Source: a bacterium (GTDB lineage Bacteria; Sysuimicrobiota; Sysuimicrobiia; Sysuimicrobiales; Kaftiobacteriaceae). From it: DNA of 24,111 bases. The stretch's first letter is position 1, and every line of letters starts with the position of its first letter. A program made the translations under genes and the position numbers. The stretch spans positions 1 through 24,111 of the forward strand of contig JBIOWP010000085.1 in NCBI GenBank assembly GCA_044868695.1, read 5' to 3'. The notes beneath the pieces are model-generated. The model had not been told where the DNA came from. It made no database searches and saw nothing but the letters and a program-made list of their open reading frames with translations. Shown here piece by piece: positions 192-21,879 of this stretch.

Positions 192-1721
192 TCACGCTTC
201 TGCCGGACGCGGCGCGCCGCCGATCTTCCCGCGGCCCCGGTAGGCGCGGATCGCCGGCAAGGCAAACAGCAGCGCGCTAGCCACGATGAAGACCATCGCA
301 ATGGGACGGCCCAAGAAGAACAGTGGAGTCCCGTCCCCCATGATCAGGCTCTGGCGCAGCGCCTGCTCGGTCATGTCGCCCAGCACCAGCGCAACCACGA
401 GCGGCGCCAGCGGGTAGCCGAGCTTCTTGAACCCGTACCCGACGACGCCCGACCCCAGCATGATCCACAAGTCCAGGACCTGGTTGTTCGTCGCGTATGC
501 TCCGATGCTGGACATGATGACGATCAACGGCGCCAGGATCCCGAACGGGATCCGGTTGATCGCCGCAAATACCGGCACCATGGTCAGTACGATCAGCACG
601 CCAAGGACGTTGGCGACGTACATCGACCCGATCAAACCCCACACAAACTCGCGCTGCTCCGTGAACAGCAGCGGCCCCGGGTTGAGGCCCCAGATGAAGA
701 ATCCGGCCAGCATCACGGCGGCTGTGGGGGATCCGGGGATGCCCAGCGTGATCATCGGCAGCAGCGACCCAATGCCGGCGGAGTGCGCGGCCGTCTCCGG
801 GGCGACGACGCCCTCGACTTCGCCTTTGCCGAACCGCTCCGGATGCTTGCTAAACTGCTTGGCCAGCCCGTAGCTCATGAACGACGCAGGCGTGGCGCCG
901 GTGCCGGGCAGGACGCCGATCCAGAAGCCGAGGATGGTGCTCCGGACGATAGTGGCGAAATAGCGCGGGAACATCCGCCAGGTCTCCCACACGTCCCCGA
1001 AGCTGACGCGCCCCTTGACCCCCTCCAGCTTCAGGCCCTCTTCCACCGTCAGGAAGATCTCCCCCAGGCCGAACAGCCCGATAGCAATGACGATGAAGTT
1101 GATGCCGCTCTGCAGTTCGATGAAGCCGAAGTTCATACGCGGCTGCCCGCTGACGATGTCAAAGCCCACGGTGCTGAGCAGCAGCCCGAGCAGGGTCATC
1201 AAAATGGTCTTGGCCGGCTGCCCGCCGCCCAGCCCGGTAAACGTGGCGAACGCCAGCAGCAGCACGGCGAAGTTCTCGGGCGGTCCAAATTTGAGGGCAA
1301 TCTCAGCTAGCGGCGGCGCGAAGAACGTGAACAAGAGGATGGACACGAGGGCGCCGATGAACGAGGAGCTGAACGCCGCCGTCAGCGCGAGCCCCGGCCG
1401 TCCCTGCTTGGCCAGCGGGTGGCCGTCGAAGGTCGTCGCCACCGACCAGGGCTCCCCGGGGATGTTGAACAGGATCGAGGTGATGGCACCGCCGAAGATC
1501 GCGCCCCAGTACACCGAAGCCAGCAGGATGATCGCGCCGGTGGGCGTCAGTGTGAACGTCAGTGGCAGCAGCAGTGCCACTCCGTTCGTCCCGCCCAGCC
1601 CCGGCAGCACACCGATCGCGGTGCCGAGGATCAATCCGATCACCGCGATGAGGAGATGCGCCGGCGCGAGGGCGACGCCTAGGCCGTACAGGAGATCGTT
1701 GAAGACAGACAGGACGCTCAT
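192..1721 (-). CDS. tctA: Tripartite tricarboxylate transporter large permease TctA (509 aa)
   Basis: Polytopic hydrophobic protein with the duplicated TctA motifs GVLPGLGG / GVLPGTGA, NIPGEP and GSLLPMITLGIPGSPTAAVML; follows tctB and tctC. Confidence 0.95.
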   Translation of the reverse strand: MSVLSVFNDLLYGLGVALAPAHLLIAVIGLILGTAIGVLPGLGGTNGVALLLPLTFTLTPTGAIILLASVYWGAIFGGAITSILFNIPGEPWSVATTFDGHPLAKQGRPGLALTAAFSSSFIGALVSILLFTFFAPPLAEIALKFGPPENFAVLLLAFATFTGLGGGQPAKTILMTLLGLLLSTVGFDIVSGQPRMNFGFIELQSGINFIVIAIGLFGLGEIFLTVEEGLKLEGVKGRVSFGDVWETWRMFPRYFATIVRSTILGFWIGVLPGTGATPASFMSYGLAKQFSKHPERFGKGEVEGVVAPETAAHSAGIGSLLPMITLGIPGSPTAAVMLAGFFIWGLNPGPLLFTEQREFVWGLIGSMYVANVLGVLIVLTMVPVFAAINRIPFGILAPLIVIMSSIGAYATNNQVLDLWIMLGSGVVGYGFKKLGYPLAPLVVALVLGDMTEQALRQSLIMGDGTPLFFLGRPIAMVFIVASALLFALPAIRAYRGRGKIGGAPRPAEA

Positions 1722-1724
1722 GCT

Positions 1725-2204
1725 CTATTTCCCGTACAGGAGCGTCTCGAGGATGATGCCTTTCGGTAGGGGCAGCAAGAACCACCGTTCGAAGATGAAA
1801 AAGAGCGCAAGCGGCACCAGCACGCTGACCAGGGCGATCGAAATCCAGCGGTGCCGCCCGACAAGCCACATGTAGCCGGCGAGGTAGATCGCGCCACCGA
1901 TGTAGATCCCCAGCAGGTCCAGCAGGACGATCACCGCCACCATCGGCGCGAAGACCACCACGAGCGGCTTCCACGCGTATCCGGGAATGAAGGGAGCCGC
2001 GTCGCGGTCGATCGTCTGCGGGCGCAGGCTCTGCACCACCACGATCGCGGCGGTCAGCAGCACGCCGACGGACAGCCAGAAGGGGAAGAAGCCGGCGCCG
2101 GGCCCGATCGATGTCCAGGTCACCGACAGATGCAGCGCCTGCCAAACCATCGCGCCGGCGCCGACCAGGAGCGCGGCCGCAACGGCTGTTTCTGCCTTGC
2201 GCAT
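1725..2204 (-). CDS. tctB: Tripartite tricarboxylate transporter small membrane subunit TctB (159 aa)
   Basis: ATG at 2204 after GGGAGG; GPGAGFFPFW near the N-terminus, FERWFLLPLPKG at the C-terminus, 4-5 TM segments; lies between tctC and tctA. Confidence 0.92.
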   Translation of the reverse strand: MRKAETAVAAALLVGAGAMVWQALHLSVTWTSIGPGAGFFPFWLSVGVLLTAAIVVVQSLRPQTIDRDAAPFIPGYAWKPLVVVFAPMVAVIVLLDLLGIYIGGAIYLAGYMWLVGRHRWISIALVSVLVPLALFFIFERWFLLPLPKGIILETLLYGK

Positions 2205-2239
2205 GATGCCTCCCAGGGGTGGTGGAGAGCGTACGTGCA

Positions 2240-2270
2240 GTGGGCGGGCGCAGAGCCCACGCCCGCCCAC
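2240..2270 (-). other. Intercistronic stem-loop after tctC (probable mRNA-stabilising or differential-expression hairpin)
   Basis: Perfect 11-bp inverted repeat GTGGGCGGGCG / CGCCCGCCCAC with a 9-nt loop; no U-tract on either strand. Confidence 0.6.
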
Positions 2271-2277
2271 GCCTGCG

Positions 2278-3288
2278 CTACTGCTCGGCCAGACCGCCTT
2301 TGATCATCAAGTTCTTCACCGTGGCGTCCTTCTGATCGAGGTATCGCAAGAACTCCGCTCCGGTCAGGAACGCCTTGGTGAACGCGCCACGCTCGATGAA
2401 GTCTGCCATCTCCGGCGTGTCCATCAACTTGCTGAACACGCCCTGGTAGAAGGCCACGGCATCAGGCGGCATGTTGGCGGTCCCGAACACACCGCGCAGC
2501 ATCTGATACTCGATGGGAAATCCCAGCTCCTTCATGGTCGGGACGTCCTTCCACTGCGGCGACTGCACCCGGTCGCTGGCGAAGATCGCCAGCGGGCGTA
2601 CGCGGCCGCCCTCCCAATGACCGACCATCTCGAGCGGGTTGTTCACCGTGAAATCGACCTGCTTGCCCACCACCGCCGCCGCCACCGCCCCGCCGCCCGA
2701 GAACGGCACGTACGTGAAGTCGACGTCCCACGCCTGCTCCAGCAAGACCATGATGATCTCGTCTTCCTGCTTGCTGCCGGTGCCGGCCATCTTGAAGCTG
2801 CCCTTGGGCGCCGCCTTGGCGGCTTTCTCGAAGTCGGCGACCGCCTTCCACGGCGAATCCGCGGGGATCGTCAGGGCGAAGTTGTCCAGCAGCAGCCGCG
2901 CGATGGGCGTCAGGTCGCGCCAGGAGAAGCGGGAGCCGTCCCGCTTGCGGATGACCTGCGCCACCGGCGTCGCGAAGAGGTTGTCCAGCGTGATGAGGAT
3001 CGTGTGCGGGTCGCCCGCCTTGTCGATCATCCACAAGAAGGCCTGCGCGCCGGCGCCCGCCGGCCGGTTGACCGGAATGACGGGCTGCGGGGCGAGGTTG
3101 TACTTGGCGATCAGCGGCGCCATGAAGCGGGCCTGCTGATCGGCGCCGCCGCCGGTGCCCGCCGGAATCGTCCACTCAATCGGGCGGCGCGGGCTGAATC
3201 CCGCCGCGCCCAGGGCCGGGACCGTGAGGATGCTCACCAGGAGCACAAGCCCCGCCGCCAGGGCGGGCCTGACCCATGTCGACCGCAT
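2278..3288 (-). CDS. tctC: Tripartite tricarboxylate transporter substrate-binding protein (TctC/Bug family, 336 aa)
   Basis: ATG at 3288 after GGAGGTGGGAG; signal peptide; Bug motifs IPAGTGGGADQQAR, VNRPAGAG, YVPFSGGG, DVPTMKELG. Confidence 0.93.
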   Translation of the reverse strand: MRSTWVRPALAAGLVLLVSILTVPALGAAGFSPRRPIEWTIPAGTGGGADQQARFMAPLIAKYNLAPQPVIPVNRPAGAGAQAFLWMIDKAGDPHTILITLDNLFATPVAQVIRKRDGSRFSWRDLTPIARLLLDNFALTIPADSPWKAVADFEKAAKAAPKGSFKMAGTGSKQEDEIIMVLLEQAWDVDFTYVPFSGGGAVAAAVVGKQVDFTVNNPLEMVGHWEGGRVRPLAIFASDRVQSPQWKDVPTMKELGFPIEYQMLRGVFGTANMPPDAVAFYQGVFSKLMDTPEMADFIERGAFTKAFLTGAEFLRYLDQKDATVKNLMIKGGLAEQ

Positions 3289-3324
3289 TATCTCCCACCT
3301 CCACCGAAATGACCTACCCCTGCC

Positions 3325-3365
3325 GGAAAATACATGGGGCTTACCGTGATCCTGGTAAGCCCCAT
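3325..3365 (-). terminator. Probable (leaky) intrinsic terminator between the oxidoreductase beta gene and tctC
   Basis: Perfect 12-bp stem ATGGGGCTTACC / GGTAAGCCCCAT (3334-3365) with an 8-nt loop, followed on the minus strand by GTATTTTCC. Confidence 0.6.
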
Positions 3366-3391
3366 CTTCCCGCTGTTGCATCGTACATCCG

Positions 3392-4417
3392 TTACGCCGG
3401 AGGCTGATCCTGCTCCAACTCCTTATGGAAGGGGATGACGCCGGGGATCAGCCACTTCGCCCACATGTCGTCAACCTTCGACTGGAAGTAGTCGATGTCG
3501 TCGTCGGTGAAGTGCGCGAAGCGGCCCTGCCGCAGCAGGTAGTCGCGCACTGGCTTGCGCTTGGAACGCTTCTCGGCGATACCTTTGGTGCGGCCGTAGA
3601 GTTTCAGCACGCGGTTTTCGACCTCATACAGCGGCCAGATCCCGGTCTCCACGGCCAGCTCGCCCAGCTCGTGGGAGAGCATGGGATCGTAGTCCCACCC
3701 CTTGGGGCACGGATCCAGCGAGTGGACGAACGTCGGACCGCCGATCGTCAGCGCTTTGCGCACCCGGTTCATCATCTCCACCGCGTACGACGCGCAGACG
3801 GTACCCACGTACCGCGTCTCCGGATGGCCGGCGGCCAGCATGCCGGCCACGTTCTTCTTCCAGCGGCTGTGCATGATCCGCTTCATCTTGCCCGGCGGGC
3901 TGAAGGTGGTGTGCGCGCCGTACGGCGTCATGCCTGAGAGTTGAATGTCGGTGTTGGCATACGACTCGTTGTCGTAGAGCAGGATGAGCACGTTGTACTG
4001 CGGGTGAGTGAGCGTGGCCGAAATCGCCGACAGGCCCATGTCCGCGCCGCCCCCGTCGCCACAAAACGCGATGACGTTGATGGGCTCTTCCTTCATCTTT
4101 CCCTTGCGCATCAGGGCCTTCAGCGCGGCCGCGGTGCCCAATCCGGCCGACCCCGAGCTGCCCAGCTGCGTGTGCATCCAGGGCACGACCCATGACGTGC
4201 TGTAGTAGGTCGTGTTGGCCACGTACATGCAGCCGGTGCTGCCCAGGACGATGGTGCGCGGGCCAGAGGCTTTGACCATCAGCTTCATCACCAGGGCCGA
4301 CTCGCACCCCTGGCACGTCCGGTGACCGGAGGTGAAGTACTCCTCCAGTGGAACTTTCTTGACCCCCTTGAATGGGTCCAGGACCTGTGTGGGGAGGGTC
4401 TCGACGGCATCCGCCAT
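3392..4417 (-). CDS. 2-oxoacid:ferredoxin oxidoreductase beta subunit (ThDP-binding), oxalate oxidoreductase-like (341 aa)
   Basis: ATG at 4417 after GAGGAG; GHRTCQGC, TGCMYVAN and PCPKGW supply the proximal 4Fe-4S cysteines; ThDP motif GDGG...YDNESYANT. Confidence 0.92.
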   Translation of the reverse strand: MADAVETLPTQVLDPFKGVKKVPLEEYFTSGHRTCQGCESALVMKLMVKASGPRTIVLGSTGCMYVANTTYYSTSWVVPWMHTQLGSSGSAGLGTAAALKALMRKGKMKEEPINVIAFCGDGGGADMGLSAISATLTHPQYNVLILLYDNESYANTDIQLSGMTPYGAHTTFSPPGKMKRIMHSRWKKNVAGMLAAGHPETRYVGTVCASYAVEMMNRVRKALTIGGPTFVHSLDPCPKGWDYDPMLSHELGELAVETGIWPLYEVENRVLKLYGRTKGIAEKRSKRKPVRDYLLRQGRFAHFTDDDIDYFQSKVDDMWAKWLIPGVIPFHKELEQDQPPA

Positions 4418-4428
4418 GGTCAGCTCCT

Positions 4429-5655
4429 CTATTCCCGAATTCCTATCCACGTGATGAGCGGCTGGGTCTCACCGGCCGCCGCCTTGAAGAGCATGTCGCT
4501 CATGCGTCGCACGTCCGGCACGGTCACCTCGCGGCCTCCGAGACCGCAGATGAAACCGGCCACCGGCGGCCTCTTGGCGGCCGGGTACAGCGAGGCGCGG
4601 ATCTCGGTGGCCAGCACGCCACTGAGGTGCGGGGAGCCGAACGAGTAGTCCCGGTCGATGACGCCCACCGCCTTGAAACGGCCCAGTGTCTGCGCCAGCT
4701 CCTCGCCCGGGAACGGCCGGAACCACCGCACCCGCACAAAGCCGACCTTCTTCCCTTCCTTGCGCATCTGCCGGATGGCCACCTTCACCGGCATCGACAG
4801 CGTGCCCATGCCGACCAGGACGACGTCGGCGTCGTCGGTCTGATACTCCTCGAAAAACGGATTCCCGTACGAACGGCCGAAGATCCGCTCGAAGTCGCGG
4901 TACGCCTCGGGAATCACCGCCGACTTCGACCGCTTCATCGCTTCGTCGTTGTGCTTGCGCAGCTCCATCAGCCAGTCCTCGTTCACCTGCGGGGCGACAG
5001 TGATCGGGTTGTCGGGATGCAGCAGCAGGTCGCCGCGGTTGTACGGCGGCAGAAAGGCGTCCACCCACTCCTGCGGCGGAATCTTCACCATTGACTGCGA
5101 GTGCGTGAGGAACGCGCCGTCACAGGCGATGGCGCACGGCAGAAAGACGCGGCGGTCCTCGGCGATACGGTAGGCCATCAGCGCCGTATCCAGCGCCTCC
5201 TGCGCGTTGTCGACCCACACGAGCTGCCAGCCCAGGTCGCGGACCGCGAGCGCATCGTTGTGCTCCACGCCGAACGCCCCGGGGTCGTCGAGGGCGCGGT
5301 TGCCGACCATCGCGACCATCGGGATCCGCAGCGCGGGCGTGACGGTGAGCGCCTCAAACGCATACATCCAGCCGACGCCGCTGCTCCCGCAGAAGACGCG
5401 CGCCCCAGCGGCCGAGGCGTGCTTAACGATCTCGAACTGCGAGTGCTCCGATTCGGCGACGATGTACTCGCAGTCCAGCTCGCCGTTGGCGACCAGCTTG
5501 GCCACATACTGCATCACCGTGTCATAGGGCCGGATGGGATACGCGGTGATCACGTCGACGTCGGCCAGTTTGCAGGCGACCGCGATCGCCTCGCTGCCGC
5601 TGATCAGCGACTCCTTTTCCTTCTGGGCCTGCGCCTTCTCGATGACCCTGGCCAT
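4429..5655 (-). CDS. 2-oxoacid:ferredoxin oxidoreductase alpha subunit, oxalate oxidoreductase-like YPIRP type (408 aa)
   Basis: ATG at 5655 after GGAGG; SGSEAIA, AYPIRP, ESEHS (ThDP-activating Glu), GSSGVG, DGAFLTH, FRPFP, GLGGR. Confidence 0.92.
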   Translation of the reverse strand: MARVIEKAQAQKEKESLISGSEAIAVACKLADVDVITAYPIRPYDTVMQYVAKLVANGELDCEYIVAESEHSQFEIVKHASAAGARVFCGSSGVGWMYAFEALTVTPALRIPMVAMVGNRALDDPGAFGVEHNDALAVRDLGWQLVWVDNAQEALDTALMAYRIAEDRRVFLPCAIACDGAFLTHSQSMVKIPPQEWVDAFLPPYNRGDLLLHPDNPITVAPQVNEDWLMELRKHNDEAMKRSKSAVIPEAYRDFERIFGRSYGNPFFEEYQTDDADVVLVGMGTLSMPVKVAIRQMRKEGKKVGFVRVRWFRPFPGEELAQTLGRFKAVGVIDRDYSFGSPHLSGVLATEIRASLYPAAKRPPVAGFICGLGGREVTVPDVRRMSDMLFKAAAGETQPLITWIGIRE

Positions 5656-5659
5656 CCCC

Positions 5660-6895
5660 TTAGCCTCCCGCGCTCGCTTCGCCGACATCGGTGACGACCT
5701 TCTCGGTGATTGCCTCGCCGCCGGTATCGACGATCCCGTCCTTCACCATCTGGTCGATCTGCTTCTCATACTGCCCGCGGATCTGGAACCCATGCGACCG
5801 CTCGGGTTTGTGCTGAATCTTCTCCTGCAGCCAGGCCTTGTATGGAGCCTTGTCCTTCTTCCACATGTCCCACTGGCTGGCGTTGTCCGCGAAGGCGGTC
5901 TCGTTGACCATCGTGATACAGTTCGTCACCGGGCACACCGCTTCGCACACGCCGCACCCGCAGCACGCCTGCATGTTGGCGTCGTAGTAGCCGTCGGGGG
6001 TGACGTCGAAACAGGAGTCCGGACACTGCAGCCAGCACAGCGTGCACTTCACGCACGTGTCGAAGTCCACGACCGGCCGCATCGTGCGGGTGGAGAACTT
6101 CTTGAAGACCGGATTGCGGTCGGGACGGAACCCGCCGGTCTGCTGCGTGGCCGGGTCGGAAAAGCCCGCTCCGGTGGGAATGCTGGGGATCGCCAGGCCT
6201 TCCCGCATCTCGAACCACTTGGGGAGCTCGAACTCGTAGGGTTTCTCTGGATTGCCTTCCGTCGGCTGCACCGGCCGTGTCGTGGTCCGATCGTGAGCCT
6301 TGCGCGCCGAGGCCACCTTCAGGGTGTCATTCCACTCCTCCAGAATCGCCTTCTCCACGGCGTCGATGCGGAACAGCTCCGGCAGCACTTTAGCAATGGC
6401 GCCAAGGATGCGCACGTCGGTGTGGTCGTCTTTGTACACCCACAGGCCGGCGAAACTCGGGATGCCCTTCACGATCGCCAGATTGTAGGGTGCGTCCTTC
6501 CGGTGGGCCATCGTCACCAGCGACTCCGCGGGCTGCATCGAGGTCACCATCAGGGTGCCGCCGGGCTTGAGGAGCCGGTTGATGGGCTGCAGTCCGTACC
6601 AGGCCCAGGACTCCACGCCCTTGCACAGCGTGTCGTCGACCGCAATCGAGATGTCGACTTCCTTGGGCTCGTACTTCGCCATCCCCTCCTGCAGCGTCTC
6701 GTCGTCCGTGGCGACGATCGCGAAGTTCTTCGCCGGGATCCCGTTGCGCTCGGGGCTGTCGCCGTAGCGGCCAAACGAAATGCCCGTCTTGCCGGCGCGC
6801 TTGGCGGCAAGCACGATCCCGCGGCTGATGTTCTTGGCCAGGTTCTTCTGGAAGATGCCGCGGTAGACGATTTCCACTGCAAAGAGACGGCCCAC
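5660..6895 (-). CDS. 2-oxoacid:ferredoxin oxidoreductase fused gamma-delta subunit with 2x[4Fe-4S] domain (411 aa)
   Basis: GTG after GGAGG; gamma-type N-terminus (YGDSPERNGIP); RTMRPVVD followed by CVKCTLCWLQCP and CCGCGVCEAVCP. Confidence 0.9.
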   Translation of the reverse strand: MGRLFAVEIVYRGIFQKNLAKNISRGIVLAAKRAGKTGISFGRYGDSPERNGIPAKNFAIVATDDETLQEGMAKYEPKEVDISIAVDDTLCKGVESWAWYGLQPINRLLKPGGTLMVTSMQPAESLVTMAHRKDAPYNLAIVKGIPSFAGLWVYKDDHTDVRILGAIAKVLPELFRIDAVEKAILEEWNDTLKVASARKAHDRTTTRPVQPTEGNPEKPYEFELPKWFEMREGLAIPSIPTGAGFSDPATQQTGGFRPDRNPVFKKFSTRTMRPVVDFDTCVKCTLCWLQCPDSCFDVTPDGYYDANMQACCGCGVCEAVCPVTNCITMVNETAFADNASQWDMWKKDKAPYKAWLQEKIQHKPERSHGFQIRGQYEKQIDQMVKDGIVDTGGEAITEKVVTDVGEASAGG

Positions 6896-6898
6896 TGG

Positions 6899-7663
6899 TT
6901 AGCCTCCCACGCGGGGTGAGTGCTGTCGGAGCAAGACGTCTTCGATCTCTTCCAGGTGCTGGTGCATCGCCGCCTCGGCGGAGGCCGCGTCGCGGCGCCG
7001 GATCGCCTCCAGGATGCGGTGGTGTCCGTCGAGCGACCGTTCGAGTCGGCCGGTGACCTGCAGCGAGCGCTCGCGGCTCTCGCGCAGCAGGTCCATCAAC
7101 ACGTCCAGGACCCGCAGGATCACCTTGTTGCTGGCGGCGGTGGCGATAGCGTAGTGGAACTCTGAGTCCTCATCGATGGCCAGCTGGCCCTGGCGGACCT
7201 TCTCGCGCTGGCGGTTGAAAATCGCCTCCAGCGATGACACATCGTCGGGTGTGGCATGCGCCGCTGCGCGGGCGGCCACCCCCGGCTCGATCAGCTTGCG
7301 AACGTCCCAGAGATCGGCAAGCAGCGTCCGGTTGCGGACCAGCAGTGACGCCAGCGGACTGACCAATGAGTCCGGAGACAGATCCCTGACCACCGTCCCC
7401 TCGCCCTGGCGGGGCTCGAGGAGACCCATCAACTCCAGTACGCGGATCGCGTCCCGCACGGACGTCCGGCTGACGCCCAGCCTCTCTGCCAGTTCGCGCT
7501 CGGGCGGCAGGTGGTCCCCCGGCTGCAGGCGGCCGTCGTTGATCAGCCGCTGAATTTGCGCAGCGACTTCCTCATAGACGCGGGTCTTGCGGACAGGTTC
7601 CAGCTCGTCTTTGACTGCGGCGGGTGAGGTAATTGTTGACTCCGGACGTGAGGAATGGTCCAT
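6899..7663 (-). CDS. GntR family, FadR subfamily transcriptional regulator (PdhR/LldR/GlcC-like)
   Basis: wHTH LQPGDHLPPERELAERLGVSRTSVRDA...RQGEGT; FCD domain DSEFHYAIA, HHRILEAIRRRD, MHQHL. Exact start uncertain (no SD). Confidence 0.93.
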   Translation of the reverse strand: MDHSSRPESTITSPAAVKDELEPVRKTRVYEEVAAQIQRLINDGRLQPGDHLPPERELAERLGVSRTSVRDAIRVLELMGLLEPRQGEGTVVRDLSPDSLVSPLASLLVRNRTLLADLWDVRKLIEPGVAARAAAHATPDDVSSLEAIFNRQREKVRQGQLAIDEDSEFHYAIATAASNKVILRVLDVLMDLLRESRERSLQVTGRLERSLDGHHRILEAIRRRDAASAEAAMHQHLEEIEDVLLRQHSPRVGG

Positions 7664-7676
7664 TGGTCAGACCATT
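7662..7676. promoter_or_regulatory. FadR-subfamily operator TGGTC-A-GACCA
   Basis: Dyad TGGTCAGACCA at 7664-7674 abuts the regulator start codon and matches the TGGT-N3-ACCA FadR-subfamily consensus; extra TGGTC half-site at 7656-7660. Confidence 0.8.
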
Positions 7677-7679
7677 GCT

Positions 7680-7708
7680 AATGTCGCACAGTGTCCGGGC
7701 CCTGTCAA
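7680..7708 (-). promoter_or_regulatory. Putative sigma70 promoter of the regulator-oxidoreductase-tct operon
   Basis: Perfect TTGACA (7708-7703), 17-nt spacer, weak TGn-GACATT -10; the predicted start site falls within the operator. Confidence 0.55.
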
Positions 7709-7729: not shown

Positions 7730-8251
7730 TCAGGTGAGGGTCCAGGCGTCTTTCCAGCTTTGGGGGAGCGGCAGGTCGGCGATATTCGCGTAGAACGCCC
7801 ACATCCCATGGTGAAGCGTCTCGTGCTGCAGCAGCCGCAGAAGGTGCTGGAGGAGGGTGAGTGTGGCCCCGCCCCAATCGATGGGCCGCGCCAGTTGCTC
7901 GGGCGTCAGCTTCCGCAGCGCCGTGAGCAGTTCTTCATCTAGATGGTGCATGTAGGCGGCCAGATTTTCCTTCGACTGTTCCAGCGCCCGCTGGCGGGGC
8001 GCCCGGAAATCCATCCTGCCGGTGCCGATGGCCGCGACATAGCAGCCCTGGATGTCGGCCGCGTGGCGCATCTGCCTGACGAGCGTCCCAAACCCCGGTT
8101 GTGGAGAGAAGTTCATCACCGCGTACGGCAACGCCCGAAGCAGGTCGTAGGTCAACGCGCGCGTCTGCCTCCACGCCTCTGCCCACTGCGCGATGTCGGG
8201 GGTGGGGAAAGCGTCGCCAGCCCCCTGGTCCGCGGTCCCCGTTCCGGTCAT
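7730..8251 (-). CDS. DinB/YfiT superfamily protein (173 aa)
   Basis: DinB pattern TRALT..LL..LP..MNFSP, RQMRH, LLQHETLHHG (His triad); ATGA overlap with the ABC ATPase. Confidence 0.82.
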   Translation of the reverse strand: MTGTGTADQGAGDAFPTPDIAQWAEAWRQTRALTYDLLRALPYAVMNFSPQPGFGTLVRQMRHAADIQGCYVAAIGTGRMDFRAPRQRALEQSKENLAAYMHHLDEELLTALRKLTPEQLARPIDWGGATLTLLQHLLRLLQHETLHHGMWAFYANIADLPLPQSWKDAWTLT

Positions 8252-9123
8252 TGCAGCGATTGCGCCTCCCGCAGGGCCGCGCGCCCCTCGCGCACCGCCT
8301 GGAAGAAGGCCGGCTCGTCCTTCAAGGCGGCGGTCCGCGGGCGCGGCAGATTCACGGCGACTTCCCGCACGATGCTGGACCCGGTGCGCGGCGACGCCCC
8401 CCGGCCCATGACGACCACGCGGTCCGACAGAAAGACCGCCTCCTCGATCGAGTGCGTGACGAAGATGATGGTGAGGTTTCGCAGCTCATACAGCCGCAGC
8501 AGCTCCAGATTCATCCGGTCGCGGGTGATCTCATCCAGCGCCCCGAACGGCTCGTCGAGCAGCAAGACCTGCGGGTCGAGCGTGAGCGCGCGCGCGAGCG
8601 CGACGCGCTGCTGCATCCCGCCGGACAGCTTCTCGGGATGGTAGCGTGCAAACGCCTCTAGCTCCACCATCCGCAGGACCTGCTGTGTCTGCGCCAGGTA
8701 CTGTCCGCGGTGAGCCCGCCACGCCCACCACCGCGGATCGCGGAGCCGCAGCGGCAGCAGGACGTTTTCCTCCACCGTGAGCCATTCGAACAGGACGGGC
8801 TGCTGGAAGATGACCGAGGACAGCCCTCCCTGCACGGCCTCGCGCGGCGGTCGGCCGCACACTTCGAGCCGTCCCGCCGTGGGTACGCGGATGCCGGCCA
8901 GCAGGAACAGGACGGTGGTCTTGCCGCATCCGGAGGGGCCGATGACGGAGACAAACTCCCCCCGCTGGACGTCCAGGGTGACATTCAGCACCACGTCCAG
9001 CGCCTGCGGCGATCCGCCCCCGAACACGCCGCGCGTCCCGGCGACCTCGTAGGTCTTGGAGATCTGTTCCAGGCGGAGAATGGGAGGAGGCCGGACCTCC
9101 GCCGGCCTCCCCGTCTCGTTCAC
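8248..9123 (-). CDS. ABC transporter ATP-binding protein, NitT/TauT family
   Basis: Walker A GPSGCGKT, signature LSGGMQQRVALARAL, Walker B LLLDEPFGALD, VTHSIEEAVFLSDRV. Confidence 0.95.
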   Translation of the reverse strand: MNETGRPAEVRPPPILRLEQISKTYEVAGTRGVFGGGSPQALDVVLNVTLDVQRGEFVSVIGPSGCGKTTVLFLLAGIRVPTAGRLEVCGRPPREAVQGGLSSVIFQQPVLFEWLTVEENVLLPLRLRDPRWWAWRAHRGQYLAQTQQVLRMVELEAFARYHPEKLSGGMQQRVALARALTLDPQVLLLDEPFGALDEITRDRMNLELLRLYELRNLTIIFVTHSIEEAVFLSDRVVVMGRGASPRTGSSIVREVAVNLPRPRTAALKDEPAFFQAVREGRAALREAQSLQ

Positions 9124-10106
9124 GGCTTGACGCCGCTACTGAACTGCGTGGTGTAGGCGGCTTTGACGTTTGGGGTCGACATGAAGATGCCGGCCGCCAC
9201 CAGATCGTTCGCGAGTCGGTCCCACGCGGCCGTGTCGATGTAGCCCAACCCGTTCTGCCGCGTCGCCGGCGTCTCGATGATGGATGCCAGGAAATCCATC
9301 CCCGCGATCTCGTGGGCTTTGTCCAGGTTCTTGTTGTACTTCAAGAGGATGTCGGCTGTCTCGCCGCGGTTGGCCAGCGCGTACTGGAAACCCTTGTAGT
9401 GCCCGGTCACAAACTGCTGGACGATCTGCGGGTACTTGCGGACGATCTCCTCGGTGGTGAAGATGACGTTCTCCGGCCATTTCATCCCGAAGTCGTCCGC
9501 GTACGAATACACGTAGTACGTTTCCTTCACGACGCGCTTGGCGACCAGTACTTCGTTGTAGCCCATCGCGTGCGCGAACTGGACCTGTTTCTGCACCCAG
9601 GCCCCGATCGTCGCGGGGTCGCCCTGCTGGTTGACGACTTTGATTTGCTTCTCCCACCCGCGGCCGATCATCGCCTTGATCTGCTTGTCATAGCCGATCC
9701 AGGTGGCCACGTTCCCTTTCACGTCCTTCGGGGACCGCAGCGGCACCCAGGACAGCAGATGGATCGCCGACTTCTGGAAGTCGTGGGAGACAACGACCAG
9801 CGGAAGCCTCTGCTTCTCCCGCGCCTCCAGGATGTTGTATGGGTAATCCACGCCGAACACGATCTCGCCGGCGCGCGCCTTGGCCATGACGCGGTCGATC
9901 GGCGACAGCCCCGGCCCGCCGCTGATCACCTGCACCCGCAGGTTGCCGAAGTACCCCTTCTCCACGCCGACGGGATCACCCATCGACTCGTTGTGGATGA
10001 ACCAGGCCTCGATCATCGAGACCGGCTGTCCCTGCGCCGCGGCGCCGGCCGACACCGCAAGCGCCAGGGCCAGCGTCACAATCACAATCCGGTGCATCAT
10101 CCGCAT
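9120..10106 (-). CDS. ABC transporter substrate-binding protein, NMT1/THI5-like (328 aa)
   Basis: ATG at 10106 after GGAGGTGG; signal peptide; EKGYF...GGPG, YNE, IFTTEE, KGFQYALAN, GLGYID; flanked by permease and ATPase. Confidence 0.85.
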   Translation of the reverse strand: MRMMHRIVIVTLALALAVSAGAAAQGQPVSMIEAWFIHNESMGDPVGVEKGYFGNLRVQVISGGPGLSPIDRVMAKARAGEIVFGVDYPYNILEAREKQRLPLVVVSHDFQKSAIHLLSWVPLRSPKDVKGNVATWIGYDKQIKAMIGRGWEKQIKVVNQQGDPATIGAWVQKQVQFAHAMGYNEVLVAKRVVKETYYVYSYADDFGMKWPENVIFTTEEIVRKYPQIVQQFVTGHYKGFQYALANRGETADILLKYNKNLDKAHEIAGMDFLASIIETPATRQNGLGYIDTAAWDRLANDLVAAGIFMSTPNVKAAYTTQFSSGVKP

Positions 10107-10135
10107 GCTCCACCTCCGAGATATGTGTGCGCGCC

Positions 10136-10954
10136 CTACGGGCGCTCTCTTGCGATGCTGACATGCCACGGCAGCATCAGCCGTTCCGCGACCGTGACGA
10201 TCCCCAGCAACACCCAGCCGATCATGGTGCAGAACACCGCGGCCAGGAACACCCGTACCGTGTTGCCGACGTAGCGCGAATCCAGGATCATGTAGCCCAG
10301 ACCTTCGAACGCGCCAAACAGCTCGCCGACGATCGCGCCGTTGACCGCCGCCATGACTCCGCCTTTGAGACTGGTGAAGATGATCGGCAGCGCCGACGGC
10401 AGCTTCAACAGCAGCATCCGCTGCAGCCAGGAGGCATTGTACACGTCCATCAGGGCCTCGCGCATGGGATCGACGGAGATAAACTCCTTGTGGGTGTGGT
10501 ACAGCACCGCAAAGAACGTGTACAGCCCCGCGATGACGATCTTGCTCGTGATCCCCAGCCCGAACCACACGACCACCAGCGAGGCCAGGGCGACGAACGG
10601 CGTGCTGTTGAGGGTCACCACGAGGCGGTACAGGAAGTTTTCCAGCGTGCGCGGCAGCCACACGAACAGCATCGCTCCCAGCAGGGCCAGCGCCGACCCG
10701 GCCACAAACCCGAGCACCGTCTCCTGAGAGGTGACCTTCGCGTAGTAGAGCACGAGCGGGGCGTCATCTCCCAGCGCGCGCAGGATTTGCGACGGCGCCG
10801 GTAGCAGGTAGGGCTGGTTGTACAGGCGCGACCCGACTTCCCACGCCGCGACGAGGAACGCGGCGAACACGGTCCACGACCCCAGGTCGGCGAACGGCGT
10901 GCGCCGCGGGGCCGGGCGGAGCGGAGGCGCCGGGCGGGCGCTCTCCTGCGCCAT
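10136..10954 (-). CDS. ABC transporter permease, NitT/TauT family (272 aa)
   Basis: TGATG overlap with the codA stop; LLPAPSQI, VVWFGLG..SK, KLPSALP, AIVGE.FG..EGLGY. Confidence 0.93.
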   Translation of the reverse strand: MAQESARPAPPLRPAPRRTPFADLGSWTVFAAFLVAAWEVGSRLYNQPYLLPAPSQILRALGDDAPLVLYYAKVTSQETVLGFVAGSALALLGAMLFVWLPRTLENFLYRLVVTLNSTPFVALASLVVVWFGLGITSKIVIAGLYTFFAVLYHTHKEFISVDPMREALMDVYNASWLQRMLLLKLPSALPIIFTSLKGGVMAAVNGAIVGELFGAFEGLGYMILDSRYVGNTVRVFLAAVFCTMIGWVLLGIVTVAERLMLPWHVSIARERP

Positions 10955-12222
10955 CACGGCACGAACCGGACGGGCTCGTCCCGGCCGTTCCAACGCACGG
11001 CCGAGCGCGCGGGCTGGGTCTGCGCGACCACCCTGCCGCGAGAGACGACGACGCGGCGGACCGCCAGCGTGCGTACCGCCTCCACCGCGGTGGGGGCGTC
11101 AAAGACGACCAGATCGGCGCGCTTCCCTTCCGCGAGGCCGTAGTCGTCCGCGCCGAAGCAGGCCGCGGCCCGCGTGGTCACCAGGTCCAGCATCGTCTCC
11201 AGCTCATCGCGGCCGGACATCTGGCCGTAGTGGACCATCACGAAACAGGCCTGCACCGGATCCCCCACCCCCAGCGGATACCACGGATCCATGATGGAGT
11301 CGTGACCGATGCACACGTTGATGCCGTTCGCCAGCAGCTCCTTCACCCGGGTAAAGCCGCGCCGGACGGGGTACCCGTCGAACCGTCCCTGCAGCACCGA
11401 GTTGTCCAATGGATTCGTGATGACGTGCACCCCCGCGTGGCGGATCCAGCGGATCAGACGGTAGGCGTAGGCGTTGTTGTAGGAGTGCATCGCAGTGGTG
11501 TGGCTGGCGGTGACGCGGCCCTGGAGCCCGAGCCGGACGGTCTCCGCCGCCACCAGCTCCAGGAAGCGGCTCTGATCGTCGTCGGTCTCATCGCAGTGCA
11601 GGTCGGCGCGGCGGTCGTACTCGGCGGCCAGCCGCAGCACGGTGCGGACGTCGCGCTCCCCGTACTCGCGGGTCCACTCGTAGTGGGGAATGCCGCCGAC
11701 GACGTCCGCGCCCATCTCCAGCGCCCGCACCATCAGCTGCTCGCCGTCGGGAAATGAATAGATCCCCTGCTGCGGGAACGCCACAATCTGCAGGGTCATG
11801 GCATCCTTGACCGCGTCGCGCACCTCCAGCAGCGCCCCGAGCGCGGTCAGCTTGGGGTCGCAGACATCCACGTGCGTCCGGACGTGCGTCACGCCGTGCG
11901 CCAGCATCCACTTCAACGCGGTCGCGGCACGCTGGGTGACGTCCTCGTGCGAGAGCGACTTGATCCGCTCACCCCAGATCTCGATCCCTTCAAACAGCGA
12001 GCCGGTGCGGTTGTGCCGCGGCTGGCCGACGGTCAGCACGGCATCAAGGTGGATGTGCGGTTCCACGAGCGCCGGCGTCACGAGGCTGCCGGCGGCGTCG
12101 ACCTCGGCCGGGGCCCGGTCGGGAAGCGACGGCGCGATCACCGCGATGCGGTCGCCGCGGATGCCGATGTCACACAGGGCTGCCTGGCCCTGGATGGCGG
12201 CGTTGCGGATCATGAGGTCCAT
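10954..12222 (-). CDS. codA: Cytosine deaminase, amidohydrolase superfamily (candidate 5-methylcytosine deaminase; 422 aa)
   Basis: EPHIHLD, GSLFEGIE.W, VRTHVD, VAFPQ, GGIPHYE, HCDETDD, SHTTAMHSY, GHDSIMDPWYPLG: the full bacterial CodA motif set. Confidence 0.92.
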   Translation of the reverse strand: MDLMIRNAAIQGQAALCDIGIRGDRIAVIAPSLPDRAPAEVDAAGSLVTPALVEPHIHLDAVLTVGQPRHNRTGSLFEGIEIWGERIKSLSHEDVTQRAATALKWMLAHGVTHVRTHVDVCDPKLTALGALLEVRDAVKDAMTLQIVAFPQQGIYSFPDGEQLMVRALEMGADVVGGIPHYEWTREYGERDVRTVLRLAAEYDRRADLHCDETDDDQSRFLELVAAETVRLGLQGRVTASHTTAMHSYNNAYAYRLIRWIRHAGVHVITNPLDNSVLQGRFDGYPVRRGFTRVKELLANGINVCIGHDSIMDPWYPLGVGDPVQACFVMVHYGQMSGRDELETMLDLVTTRAAACFGADDYGLAEGKRADLVVFDAPTAVEAVRTLAVRRVVVSRGRVVAQTQPARSAVRWNGRDEPVRFVP

Positions 12223-18437: not shown

Positions 18438-19454
18438 TCACGGGGCGACCTCCACCCGGAACCGCTGCAGCACCCGCTGGATCGGGATGGCAAACGTGAC
18501 GACCGTGCTTCCCGCAAACAGCAGCCCCACCACACGGCCCTGCCCGTCCACAATCGCCGACCCTGAATCGCCGGGGCGGCTGAACGGCCCGTCCACGTTT
18601 TCGATCACCATCACGTCGTCCACGCGGACCAGACCCTGATCATACACGACGTTGAACACATCGAACTGGACGGCGCGCACGATCCCCTCCGTGATGCCCG
18701 TGGTACGTCCGGACTTCCGGACGAGCAGGTTCAGCGCCGGGTCTCCCGAGCCGGTCGGGGCGCCGATGCCCAGAATCGCCGGATCCACGGCCAGCCCATC
18801 GGTGAACTGCGCGATCGCGGCATCCATGCGGTTGGGGGCGTTCTCGAATTTCAGGGGAACGAAGCGGGCGAGCGACGCCACCCGGTCGGCGGCGCGGCCG
18901 CCGTCCAGCGTTGCCGGCTGCACGACCCCGGCGCCGACGGCGGCCCGGTTCTCATTGGCCAGCACGTGGTTGTTGCTCAACGCGTACAGCGTCCTGCGGT
19001 TCTTCGTGTCGGCCACGACCAGACCCAGCGTGCCCGCGTAGAGGAATCCCACCGCCTCGAACGCCAGGCCGCCGGAGACCCCGCCGGGCACCGGGCGGTG
19101 CCGCTGCTGGTTGGGAAATTGAAACTTGCGGGCGTAGCCGACTCCTTCGATGTCGGTGGGAATGCCCCCGATCGACGCGGGGATGCGGTCGCCGGGACTG
19201 ATCCGTCCCTTGGGATACTTCCGCGCGACCAGCACCTTGACGCACAGCTCGCCGGTCGGACGGTCGGACACGCGCTTCTCACCGATCCCCAGCCCCACCA
19301 GGTTGACCCCGGGCGCGGGCTGATACCGGCGCTTCTTCCGCACGACCACCGCCCGCAGGACGTACCGCTCGATCCGGGGCACCAGCCGGCTGCGCAGCTC
19401 TTCCTTCGCCGCGATCAGGTCGTCCGGCATCCGGCGGATCAGCGGTCGTTTCAT
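18438..19454 (-). CDS. Trypsin-like (PA clan) serine protease, Nal1-like, no signal peptide (338 aa)
   Basis: Triad motifs LSNNHVL, MDAAIA, PGDSGS; also GTLG, VQPA..DGG, KSGRTTGITEG, VVGLLFAG. Start at 19454 (ATGA overlap) or 19430. Confidence 0.88.
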   Translation of the reverse strand: MKRPLIRRMPDDLIAAKEELRSRLVPRIERYVLRAVVVRKKRRYQPAPGVNLVGLGIGEKRVSDRPTGELCVKVLVARKYPKGRISPGDRIPASIGGIPTDIEGVGYARKFQFPNQQRHRPVPGGVSGGLAFEAVGFLYAGTLGLVVADTKNRRTLYALSNNHVLANENRAAVGAGVVQPATLDGGRAADRVASLARFVPLKFENAPNRMDAAIAQFTDGLAVDPAILGIGAPTGSGDPALNLLVRKSGRTTGITEGIVRAVQFDVFNVVYDQGLVRVDDVMVIENVDGPFSRPGDSGSAIVDGQGRVVGLLFAGSTVVTFAIPIQRVLQRFRVEVAP

Positions 19455-19903: not shown

Positions 19904-19951
19904 GGCGTCACCTCGCCCGACGACGTCTGATTGCATCTTGGAGGGTGCTCG

Positions 19952-20437
19952 ATGAGTCTGAAAGCCGCCCGCGACCGGGTCCCCCGCCGCAGCGTGACCC
20001 TCGAGGCCGGCACGACGTTTGACACCACCTTCGTCTCCGGCCGGCACGCGAACCTGATGGTGGCCGCCCGGCCGCCGGGCTACCACTCGCGGCCGCACGC
20101 CCACGACGCGGAGCAGTTGAACTACGTCCAGGAGGGTGAGGTGTGGTTCTTCGTCGGCGCCAAGGGCTATCATCTCCGCCAGGGCGACTTCTTCCGCGTC
20201 CCGCGGGGCGCGGTGCACTGGATGTGGAACCGGACGGACCGTCCTCTTCTCCTCATCGAAGCCCACGCGCCGTCCATGGTCAACGACCCGCTGTTTTCTT
20301 CTTTCGGGATGCGGCTCTTTGACCCTGGTGAAGACGGCGCCGTCGAGAGCTCCGCGGTCAACGCGATGGTGTCAGACTACGATCCGGCTCCGGTCGAAGC
20401 CAACTACCCTGATCCGAACGGCCCCGGGGAACGCTAG
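19952..20437 (+). CDS. Cupin domain protein (161 aa)
   Basis: ATG at 19952 after GGAGGG; motif 1 PPGYHSRPHAHDAEQLNYVQEG and motif 2 GDFFRVPRGAVH. Confidence 0.88.
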   Translation: MSLKAARDRVPRRSVTLEAGTTFDTTFVSGRHANLMVAARPPGYHSRPHAHDAEQLNYVQEGEVWFFVGAKGYHLRQGDFFRVPRGAVHWMWNRTDRPLLLIEAHAPSMVNDPLFSSFGMRLFDPGEDGAVESSAVNAMVSDYDPAPVEANYPDPNGPGER

Positions 20438-21879
20438 GGCCGGTACCCCAGCAGCGGCCAGTAGAGGAACGCCGCCGCCCATGTGAGCAGCAGCAGGAGG
20501 ATCGACGCGGGGAATCCCGACCGCATGTAGTCTCTGATCGTGTAGTACTCGTAGCCCAGGGTGATCATGCCCGTCGGCGTCTGCGTGGGCAGCAGGAATC
20601 CCGGCCCGGCGGTCAGCACCACGACCATGCCGACCCACACGGGGTTGAGCGTCCAGCCGCGGGCCAGCGTGAAGGCGAGCGGCAGCCCCGCGGCGATCAT
20701 CCCGAGATTGTTGACGAACCCGATGCGCACCAGCATGACCAGCGGCGCGACCATCAACGCGGCGGTCAGCGGCGAGGGCTGGTGGACCAGACGCAGCGTC
20801 GCGTCCGTCAGCCACCGCCCGGCGCCGGAGCGGTCCAGCGCGTCTGCCAGCGCGAGCGCCACGCCGAAGAGGATGATGACGTTCCAGCGCACCGCGGCCA
20901 TCGCCCGCTCCCACGTCAGCAGGCGGATGCCGGGCAGCAGCAGCGCGATCGCGCCGACCATCCCGGCCTGCGGCGTGCTGATGCCCCACCGCGGCCCGGC
21001 GACCCATAGGACAAACATCAACAGGAAAATCAGCAGCATCTTCCGTTCAGCGACCGACAGCGGCCCCATGCGGCGCAGCGCCTCCCGGACGTACGCCGCG
21101 CCTCCGGCGAGTTCGGTCTGCCCGGGCGGAAACACCCACAGCAAGATCCGCCACAGCAGCAGGGCGAAGATGACGACCACGGGGAAGAACGCCGCCATCC
21201 AAGCCGGATACGCCCACCGCACGTCGATGAGCCGCTCAAACGCCCCGGCGGCGTAGACCGTCGCCCCCGCTGCGGTCATCAGTCCGATCCCGGCCATGAT
21301 GGACACGTGGGAGGCGCCGATCAGCATCGACTTCGCAAAAGGAGACGACGGCGGGATGCTGGCGGCGTCGATGATCCCCAGGCACACCGGCAGGATCATC
21401 GAGATCCGGCCCGTCGCGGTGGGCACCATCAACGAGAGCACGACCGCCGATCCCAGCAGCGCGAGGAGCACCGCGGACGGGCGGCCGCCGGCGCGCTGCA
21501 GCAGCGCAAGTGCGATCCGCCGGCCCAGCCCGACGTCGGCCATCGCCTGAGCCAGGATGAAGGTCACGAACAGCAGCCAGACAAACTCGGTGCCGAATCC
21601 GGAGACCGCGTCCGTAAACGGGATGACGCCGAGCAGCGAGATCATCGTGAGGATCAGCAGGCCGGACAGCGACGGATCCTGCACGCCGCTGGCCCAGAAC
21701 AGTACCGCCGACACGAGCGCAGCCAGCGCAAACGCTCCGGGCCGGCTCAACCCGTCCGGGAGCGGCGCGGCCGCGGCGGCCGCAAAGCACAACACTAAAA
21801 CCGCCCAGGGGATCCACGCCCAACGAGGCTGACGCTCTTCCTGTTCTTCTAACGGTGCGCTGTCGAGGGAGGGCATCAC
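20434..21879 (-). CDS. SLC13/DASS family anion (di/tricarboxylate) transporter
   Basis: Polytopic; GLGRRIAL, MVPTATGR, MGPLS..E, WNVIILFG..LAL, FLLPTQTP, GY.Y...DYMR.G. Start GTG 21879 or ATG 21876. Confidence 0.88.
   Translation of the reverse strand: MMPSLDSAPLEEQEERQPRWAWIPWAVLVLCFAAAAAAPLPDGLSRPGAFALAALVSAVLFWASGVQDPSLSGLLILTMISLLGVIPFTDAVSGFGTEFVWLLFVTFILAQAMADVGLGRRIALALLQRAGGRPSAVLLALLGSAVVLSLMVPTATGRISMILPVCLGIIDAASIPPSSPFAKSMLIGASHVSIMAGIGLMTAAGATVYAAGAFERLIDVRWAYPAWMAAFFPVVVIFALLLWRILLWVFPPGQTELAGGAAYVREALRRMGPLSVAERKMLLIFLLMFVLWVAGPRWGISTPQAGMVGAIALLLPGIRLLTWERAMAAVRWNVIILFGVALALADALDRSGAGRWLTDATLRLVHQPSPLTAALMVAPLVMLVRIGFVNNLGMIAAGLPLAFTLARGWTLNPVWVGMVVVLTAGPGFLLPTQTPTGMITLGYEYYTIRDYMRSGFPASILLLLLTWAAAFLYWPLLGYRP

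Follow-up and report, generated by a model that had tools for sequence, protein, structure and literature searches.

We found that a stretch of 24,111 nucleotides from a soil bacterium of the phylum Sysuimicrobiota (CSP1-3), here called the window, carries a seven-gene module which, judging from its sequence, would take up oxalate under the control of a repressor and oxidise it to 2 CO2 without CoA; we put the probability of this reading at roughly 70%. The module comprises genes for a GntR/FadR-subfamily regulator, for the gamma-delta, alpha and beta subunits of an enzyme resembling oxalate oxidoreductase (OOR), and for TctC, TctB and TctA of a tripartite tricarboxylate transporter (TTT). All seven lie on the minus strand and, as the earlier note had stated, are co-oriented with gaps of mostly 3-11 nt: from the regulator to tctA the gaps measure 3, 4, 11, 103, 73 and 3 nt, four of the six lying within that range and the exceptions being beta-tctC (103 nt) and tctC-tctB (73 nt). 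The locus is not an assembly artefact, since the region was covered piecewise by near-identical contigs from the soil runs of two studies and the same gene order was seen again in relatives. None of the 25 ORFs scanned in the window is oxc, frc or oxlT, as had been claimed, and a profile search found none of the three above cut-off anywhere in the window's genome.

Enzyme subunits and their relation to OOR

The subunits are encoded on the minus strand at 5660..6895 (gamma-delta, a gamma part, domain III, fused to a 2[4Fe-4S] ferredoxin, domain V), 4429..5655 (alpha, domains I-II) and 3392..4417 (beta, domain VI, with TPP and the proximal [4Fe-4S] cluster), presenting the three-subunit layout with fused domains III-V described for OOR (PMC5020499). 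In both sequence and fold, the best match was the OOR of Moorella thermoacetica (5C4I, 5EXD, 5EXE). For example, 5c4i was the top match of each subunit in a PDB search, with 328.7 bits for alpha (next PDB match 229.8), 292.7 for beta (next 203) and 70.7 for gamma-delta (next 43.9); the gamma-delta AlphaFold model was weak (pLDDT 62.5, ferredoxin part <50) and was used for Foldseek ranking only. The OOR families of NCBIfam (NF045790-NF045792) were likewise the best matches of all three subunits, each scoring below the cut-off (gamma-delta 86.9/230, alpha 378/500, beta 335.9/590), and the scores for the pyruvate:ferredoxin oxidoreductase (PFOR) families also fell below their cut-offs (PorA 360/550, PorB 281/405, PorD 56.5/120).

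The motifs quoted in the earlier note were all found, YPIRP at residues 39-43 of alpha and GHRTCQGC, TGCMYVANT, YDNESYANT, GHPE and PCPKGW in beta. In alpha, R42 aligns to R31 of OOR, R120 to R109 and Q223 to Q211, and N155 of beta corresponds to N143; the equivalents of R31, the residue for oxalate's second carboxylate (PMC5020499), and of R109 are kept across the window's enzyme and its relatives, which we call clade A. Unlike Moorella OOR, however, the window's enzyme has Ala (A127) at Asp116 of the switch loop, Asp at Pro113 (D124) and Asp at Gly145 of beta (D157), the last being invariant across clade A and absent from OOR. At position Asp116 we counted 108 Ala and one Ser in 109 clade-A alpha matches (repeats of one genome included), and Asp in seven of seven true-OOR matches. 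Asp116 has been reported to be important for the bait-and-switch mechanism of OOR (PMC5020499), and a variant without it offers a direct test of that mechanism. The replacements at Asp116 and beta Gly145, and the sub-cut-off scores of all three subunits, had been passed over in the earlier note. Since Asp116 is missing and the enzyme falls outside the OOR equivalogs of NCBIfam, we infer CoA-free oxalate oxidation rather than transfer it by orthology.

The Gly-rich loop of domain III, which we take to be the CoA-binding loop, is absent from clade A, as it is from OOR: the window's enzyme has YRGIFQK, as against GRGGQG in the PorC of locus L202 and [WT]RG[IV] in true OORs. The acidic plug loop of OOR presumably lies in domain III and contains Glu154. 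At about the place of the SEGG/TEGA loop of true OORs, the window's protein has VYKDDH (GLWVYKDDH in the plug-loop region, where Moorella OOR differs), with low model confidence at 147-155. A C-terminal extension of about 70 aa further sets gamma-delta apart from the Moorella subunit. Its eight ferredoxin cysteines were invariant in the 18 sequences aligned. The binding of alpha to beta is textbook knowledge.

In a quick tree of alpha, which had YPITP-type proteins as outgroups and did not include Moorella OOR itself, the sister group of clade A was formed by the sequences that score above the OOR cut-off, and the YPITP enzymes lay apart (SH-aLRT 88), so that the proposed grouping with OORs held for alpha. 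Named Kor/For, Vor and Pad enzymes were compared by NCBIfam scores only. The four-subunit archaeal-type PFOR/VOR and PadEFGHI enzymes (e.g. M. acetivorans PFOR 9BT4; NF040682, NF045764), which are CoA-dependent (PMC12337175), share the domain set and the split alpha and beta and gave the second-best matches, but their YPITP motif, GRGGQG-type gamma loop and separate delta subunit are absent here. The genome has three other genes of E1-type dehydrogenases, and the window's alpha is the only 2-oxoacid:ferredoxin oxidoreductase (OFOR) alpha found in it. The tree, the gamma loop and these three genes bear out the earlier view of an OOR-like enzyme, and we rejected a housekeeping PFOR because of the motif, the gamma loop, the tree and the gene context. 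An unusual CoA-dependent oxidoreductase for pyruvate or another 2-oxoacid, with oxalate genes as neighbours through shared regulation, would agree with the database name of the clade-A enzyme, 'pyruvate ferredoxin oxidoreductase', with the 360 bits of alpha on PorA_Arch against 378 on OOR alpha, and with the lack of a second OFOR alpha; however, YPIRP in place of YPITP, the missing Gly-rich loop, the branching with OORs, the three E1 dehydrogenases and the consistent oxalate-type neighbours make this very improbable.

Distribution and gene neighbourhood of clade A

Of 94 genomes from the host phylum, 67 had clade A, related genomes in these counts being non-independent samples, and the clade also occurred in some Acidobacteriota and Myxococcota. 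Unlike bacteria with Oxc/Frc systems, the clade-A hosts tested had no oxc or frc above cut-off and have a ferredoxin-type enzyme instead; for oxc, the counts were 0 of 94 phylum genomes and 0 of five other clade-A genomes. All 80 clade-A loci in GTDB are from metagenome-assembled genomes and none of 54 matching plasmid records held a clade-A enzyme (all <60% identity, best 37%), and hence no cultured clade-A host was found. Four contigs (L042, L043, L074 and G006:C84) hold a clade-A enzyme plus a true OOR, which may therefore have different substrates.

In the literature searched, which did not extend to primary OOR papers, we found no description of clade A, and OOR figured there as the single Moorella enzyme; the main text of the papers examined on the CSP1-3 phylum does not mention oxalate. 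Soil oxalate turnover in the oxalate-carbonate pathway has been surveyed by oxc, frc, oxdC and oxlT (PMC10192776), and such gene surveys underestimate it according to a review (PMC13409138). A CoA-free route in clade A would be missed by oxc/frc surveys, with the module in 67 of the 94 genomes of a phylum free of oxc. Conversely, because of its pyruvate-type label and its score below the OOR filter applied in one rTCA survey (PMC13147460), the clade-A enzyme could be miscounted as CO2-fixing.

Of 68 loci informative for the slot after beta, 47 had an OxlT-family gene there and 11 a TTT. Eight of eight OxlT-family neighbours tested pass TIGR04259; in the single neighbour that was aligned to the OxlT structure, Arg272 and Lys355 are both retained. 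OxlT is an oxalate:formate antiporter, and the oxidation of oxalate to 2 CO2 yields no formate, from which the earlier note had argued that an OOR route cannot sustain OxlT antiport and that a TTT would fit. A TTT does follow the enzyme in the 11 loci, but the argument itself was contradicted, because the OxlT family is the commonest neighbour and this TTT subfamily also adjoins formate-producing oxc/frc operons. TTT and OxlT-family carriers thus appear interchangeable in the slot.

Oxalate-CoA-ligase-like and PanE-like genes were near the enzyme in 34 of 80 loci, aminotransferase genes in 27 and malate synthase genes in eight. In the PDB, the neighbouring ligase matched oxalyl-CoA synthetases best, at 428 bits; the highest-scoring ligase not acting on oxalate reached 255. 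In addition, an LctP/GlcA-type permease follows tctA in six loci, and an isocitrate-lyase-like ORF, named by eye, is close to L197. These aminotransferase, malate synthase, permease and isocitrate-lyase-like genes, together with the loss of Asp116, the OxlT partner, the true OOR on the same four contigs and a TctC relative of Skermanella lying about 7 kb from gcl-hyi-glxR, would also suit an enzyme that oxidises glyoxylate or another C2 acid (e.g. oxamate) to CO2 and formate or a formyl unit, the formate driving OxlT antiport and the operon still belonging to an oxalate/glyoxylate network. We consider this unlikely, since Arg31, for oxalate's second carboxylate, is retained, the TctC subfamily tracks several kinds of oxalate pathway, the glyoxylate genes are equally explained by oxalate assimilation (PMC13409138), and the window's genome encodes neither a close oxalate-CoA ligase nor a close PanE (best identities 32% and 29%) to turn imported oxalate into glyoxylate.

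The TTT subfamily and the proposed oxalate route

The adjacent genes tctC (2278..3288, solute-binding protein, PF03401), tctB (1725..2204, small membrane subunit, PF07331) and tctA (192..1721, large membrane subunit, PF01970), on the minus strand, all score above the Pfam gathering scores and form a complete set like those of known TTTs (TctABC; Bug, MatC, AdpC, TphC). The closest solved TctC is distant (4X9T, uncharacterised, 111 bits). A GTGSKQED-type motif is common to the window's TctC, the sole TctC with it in its genome, and 66 of 80 relatives scanned from a seed 53% identical to the window's protein. The TctC tree placed the window's protein and its relatives in one clade (support 91), with rows L119, L122, L123, L151 and L190 disregarded as beta subunits.

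Elsewhere, TctC relatives adjoin oxc/frc, true OOR or oxlT. In loci of at least 7 kb, counted for this TctC clade alone, 24 of 31 had an oxalate marker, 17 of these a marker other than clade A; the genes beside close TctC matches were above cut-off for oxc in eight of eight tested and for true OOR alpha in two of two. For plasmid-borne relatives in Skermanella, Azospirillum and Roseomonas we found no direct oxalate gene, and oxc, frc and oxlT were all absent up to a distance of 12 kb from three Azospirillaceae plasmid loci of this TctC type. The Oxc/Frc/OxlT and Oxs/PanE2 systems of Oxalobacter and Methylorubrum have in common with clade-A loci the OxlT-family carriers, the ligase-like and PanE-like genes and the same TctC subfamily. 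The reading of oxalate as the likeliest substrate, already favoured in the earlier note, is strengthened because the neighbours of both clade A and the TctC relatives include oxalate-type genes, OxlT-family and oxalate-CoA-ligase-like genes among the former.

The window's TTT might instead import another substrate (e.g. malonate, tartronate, glycolate or a metal-oxalate complex) and be merely co-regulated with an oxalate-oxidising enzyme, as could fit the hairpin between beta and tctC, the position of the window's TctC on its own CSP1-3 branch with 41-52% identity to 80 metagenome relatives, and the finding that several members of the phylum (L006, L007, L100, L106 and L108) have no TTT after beta. 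The slot shared by TTT and OxlT, the GTGSKQED-type motif and the single TctC clade argue against it, and we regard it as quite improbable. Oxalate could be a new TTT substrate, no oxalate-linked TTT having been found in the literature searched, and TctC lends itself to an easy ligand assay.

Under the oxalate reading, oxalate would be captured by TctC and imported by TctAB, an OxlT-family carrier taking the place of the TTT in most hosts outside CSP1-3. Both carboxylates would be held at TPP by Arg42, Arg120 and Asn155 of beta, and both carbons released as CO2; the role of the absent Asp116 might be taken by the clade-specific Asp157 of beta or by Asp124 of alpha. Electrons may pass through three [4Fe-4S] clusters, whose cysteines are conserved, and reach an external carrier, which might be the FdxA-like ferredoxin encoded in the genome (a profile search of which found no single-cluster ferredoxin, PF13370), and on to respiration through complex I and a heme-copper oxidase, which this host encodes, unlike the acetogen Moorella, whose OOR also differs in that the window's enzyme is linked to a TTT. 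Carbon assimilation via glyoxylate would be possible as well in many Acidobacteriota, where oxalate-CoA-ligase-like, PanE-like, aminotransferase and malate synthase genes adjoin the enzyme; the module in the window's genome would mainly yield energy, because no close ligase or PanE match is present there. More tentatively, and with the odds somewhat against it, the majority of CSP1-3/Sysuimicrobiota, a phylum widespread in deep soil, and some Acidobacteriota and Myxococcota may be hidden oxalotrophs with an oxygen-compatible second class of OOR, in which the catalytic Asp moved from Asp116 on the switch loop of alpha to Asp157 of beta and which is supplied by a TTT subfamily specific for oxalate and used by Oxc/Frc bacteria too.

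Regulator and intergenic elements

The regulator (6899..7663, minus strand) combines a GntR HTH with an FCD domain (PF00392, PF07729), as in the FadR subfamily; its best NCBIfam matches, NanR, LldR, PdhR and GlcC, were each below cut-off. A regulator gene was present at 70 of 71 related clade-A loci with room for one. An operator-like palindrome, TGGTC-N9-GACCA (7656..7674), overlaps its start codon (7661-7663), and these observations agree with the self-regulation proposed earlier: the regulator is likely an autorepressor, which on binding the palindrome over its own start would keep the operon repressed; binding of oxalate or an oxalate derivative to the regulator would lift the repression. 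Within 200 nt upstream of the regulator, the palindrome was exact in 48 of 81 genes and had at most one mismatch in 62, compared with 18 and 44 of 2490 random windows, the pattern having been derived from the same upstream regions as those counted. It is not unique in the window's genome, which has eight exact matches. An earlier candidate, TGGTC-N-GACCA, was given up because it fitted just 21 of the 81 upstream regions.

A candidate -35 box, TTGACA (7703..7708, minus strand), was read by eye, with a 17-nt spacer to a weak candidate -10, GACATT (7680-7685), which matches the consensus at just three of six positions, so that a consensus scan did not list this promoter; TTGAC(A) is also upstream in most of the relatives' regulator regions listed. 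In the gap between beta and tctC, a 12-pair hairpin with a T-rich tail (3334..3365, minus strand) may be an attenuator or an mRNA-stability element. Strong hairpins, unrelated to each other in sequence, were present in most of the relatives' beta-tctC gaps that were folded.

Operon layout and enzyme subunits

The seven ORFs described in the earlier note were found at the positions claimed, all on the minus strand (192-7663), and its mostly 3-11 nt spacing is matched by intergenic gaps, in operon order, of 3, 4, 11, 103, 73 and 3 nt. Their Pfam domains were GntR+FCD, Fer4, POR_N+PFOR_II, TPP_enzyme_C, TctC, TctB and TctA. Near-identical contigs from four soil runs of two studies, one run possibly being the source, cover the stretch piecewise; the host genome (G000), presumably of phylum CSP1-3/Sysuimicrobiota, measures 2.6 Mb at 95% completeness.

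Moorella oxalate oxidoreductase (OOR) was the top PDB match of alpha (328.7 bits; runner-up 229.8), beta (292.7; 203) and gamma-delta (70.7; 43.9), and when gamma-delta was modelled with AlphaFold, at low confidence (pLDDT 62.5), OOR chains again ranked first. The three NCBIfam OOR equivalogs were top for the three subunits, with every score below the cut-off. For the alpha phylogeny, 134 sequences were reduced to 65 by removing one for coverage and six frameshifted or partial rows and by thinning outgroups. In this quick IQ-TREE, the window alpha lay inside a clade (clade A; support 99) with one basal variant (96), and the sister of clade A was a clade (support 100) whose tested members, from loci L074, L081 and L082, pass the OOR cut-off. 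Of the phylogenetic comparison proposed earlier, the part concerning OOR stood, alpha grouping with the OOR-passing clade (joint node SH-aLRT 88) in a tree composed without Moorella's own sequence and without named Kor, Vor or Pad references. In the basal variant, P0250, which is 47-48% identical to the window alpha, the motifs read FPIRP and RALDDPGNF, and Asn stands where OOR has Asp116.

Arg31 (YPIRP), Arg109 and Asp116 are named as key OOR residues in PMC5020499. The window alpha keeps the two arginines (as R42 and R120), and Asp116 is replaced by Ala127. Over all loci, with some genomes counted twice, this position is Ala in 108 and Ser in one of 109 RALDD-loop matches, and Asp in 7/7 R[TA]LDPP-loop matches. 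The beta motif reads YANTDIQ in 101 of 110 matches; the remaining nine, all in true-OOR loci, carry Gly, as does Moorella beta. This reciprocal alpha/beta pattern suggests the hypothesis that a putative catalytic acid has moved. Gamma starts with YRGIFQK in the window, [WT]RG[IV] in true OORs and GRGGQG in a PorC, the Gly-rich loop of domain III being what we take to be the CoA site. Domain III binds CoA, according to PMC13768988. Gamma-delta residues ~337-411 (window 5660-5890) form a conserved C-terminal extension past the ferredoxin domain (SQW...R-HGF...GQY), which is absent from Moorella delta and could shield clusters from O2.

The gene set, residues, tree position and neighbours, which were directly established, are best read as import of oxalate and its CoA-free oxidation to two CO2, with electrons passing to ferredoxin and respiration, a reading to which we would give a probability of about 0.7; within it we infer the substrate, CoA independence, electron acceptor and ligands of TctC and the regulator.

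Neighbours and distribution of clade A

Neighbours were counted in the best 80 of 180 confirmed GTDB loci, and the counts are not independent because most of these loci are from related Terriglobia. The regulator was upstream of gamma-delta in 70 of the 71 loci with room. Twelve loci were too short beyond beta; among the 68 informative ones, an OxlT-family gene followed within 600 nt in 47 (45 co-oriented), TctC in 11 and other content in 10. All eight OxlT genes scanned (seven of the 47-locus set and one from another locus, L104) passed TIGR04259, the remaining assignments of the set being by tblastn similarity, and in the single OxlT sequence compared with the O. formigenes structure, Arg272 and Lys355 were conserved. 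In 12 further phylum loci, two of which repeat earlier contigs, the slot after beta held TTT in eight, OxlT in one and neither in three. The earlier note argued for a TTT on the ground that OxlT is unusable with OOR. This argument does not hold: the enzyme's usual partner is in fact OxlT, and the window-type TTT also accompanies formate-forming operons. With oxalate going to two CO2, OxlT would have to operate without formate, and some contigs carry both clade A and a true OOR; for these reasons a rival in which the clade-A enzyme converts glyoxylate to formate stays alive, as an unlikely one, beside the preferred CoA-free oxidation of oxalate.

A true OOR operon lay directly downstream in two of the 10 other-content loci and divergently upstream in one. 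At L074:910-4729, L042:6364-11264 and L043:9635-14523, next to clade-A operons, such true OOR operons have a separate gamma and also encode a GltD-like flavoprotein of 610 aa with a delta-type ferredoxin domain at its end; these are likely NAD(P)-linked OORs. An AAA ATPase resembling Cdc48/VAT (assigned by eye) adjoins true OOR genes at L074:9321-11717, L096:3450-5525, L144:1408-3678 and L145:9052-10470, and matched only those four among all compared loci.

The same 80 loci included an acyl-CoA ligase in 34, a PanE-like gene in 34, an aminotransferase in 27 and malate synthase in eight. The top four PDB matches of the neighbouring ligase were all oxalate-CoA ligases. PanE2 of M. extorquens is a putative oxalyl-CoA reductase (PMC8411744).

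At E <= 1e-90, matches were present in 67 of 94 phylum genomes (a tally taking in two unpublished genomes, G017 and G025), with the best match at least 58% identical in each, and in 39 of the 54 high-quality ones; an Acidobacteriota sample gave 9/301, seven at 57% identity or more. Two Acidobacteriota genomes, G238 (L196/L197) and G321, have two clade-A copies each; in G238 OxlT accompanies both, and one copy adjoins malate synthase and an isocitrate-lyase-like ORF. No oxc gene exceeded the cut-off in the 94 phylum genomes or in five other clade-A genomes, and none of oxlT, oxc and frc did so genome-wide in G000. Among the genes of G000 are three full ones for E1-type dehydrogenases, together with complex I NuoF, a heme-copper oxidase and, on contig C45, an FdxA-like ferredoxin (named by eye). 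A limited literature search, covering passages of text, returned no description of clade A or of an oxalate TTT; clade A may be present in the primary OOR papers or the 2016 OFOR phylogeny as an unnamed group, and gene tables of two CSP1-3 papers may list the operon genes under another name.

The TTT importer and its relatives

Metagenome contigs were scanned with the TctC of locus L052 (53% identical to that of the window), and the best 80 of 590 relatives were analysed. Oxalate markers, counted without a matched control, occurred in 24 of 31 loci of at least 7 kb and in 8/49 shorter ones. The 24 comprised seven with clade A and 17 with oxc, frc, oxlT, true OOR or ligase+PanE. In these loci the oxc cut-off was passed by eight close matches, the frc cut-off by one gene, and those for OOR alpha and oxlT by two genes each; two other TPP enzymes adjoining frc missed the oxc cut-off. 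These acetolactate-synthase-like enzymes, beside frc and TTT (L141:4191-5906 and L152:6605-8299), have a 45% identical relative close to clade A in L024 (54-1706) and are possible non-canonical oxalyl-CoA decarboxylases. In a FastTree read with five mis-picked rows disregarded, the window TctC grouped with these relatives (support 91), apart from the four other TctC genes of G000. Against the link to oxalate, three Azospirillaceae plasmid loci with this TctC type lacked oxc, frc and oxlT within 12 kb, and one had gcl-hyi-glxR ~7 kb away.

A second, partial tctA, 92% (aa) and 81% (nt) identical to that of the window, opens contig C119 of G000 (1-1040; L095). Behind it come an unassigned 330-aa ORF, then an LctP permease and lastly a GMC-oxidoreductase-like ORF, as downstream of the operon in relatives; this partial tctA reflects either a duplicate transporter or a mixed bin. 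TerC/YjbE-family membrane genes recur beside the window-type TTT or after beta (L106:4948-5898, L136:5213-6391, L110 and L111).

Operator-like palindrome and other genes of the window

The palindrome TGGTC-N9-GACCA (7656-7674) overlaps the regulator's ATG just downstream of a TTGACA box (7703-7708). Upstream of regulator genes, the regions from which the pattern itself was derived, it was exact in 48/81 and within one mismatch in 62/81; among 2490 random windows the corresponding counts were 18 and 44. The regulator would autorepress the operon.

Elsewhere in the window, an ABC transporter whose binding protein is NMT1/THI5-like, and a cytosine deaminase above the cut-off (8248-12222), likely serve pyrimidine salvage. 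Positions 19931-24036 encode a cupin, a DASS transporter, an SDR, a carboxymuconolactone-decarboxylase-like protein and a second TctC, unrelated to that of the operon and nearly identical to one on contig C30. A trypsin-like peptidase (18438-19454) has weak similarity to the Nal1 C-terminus.
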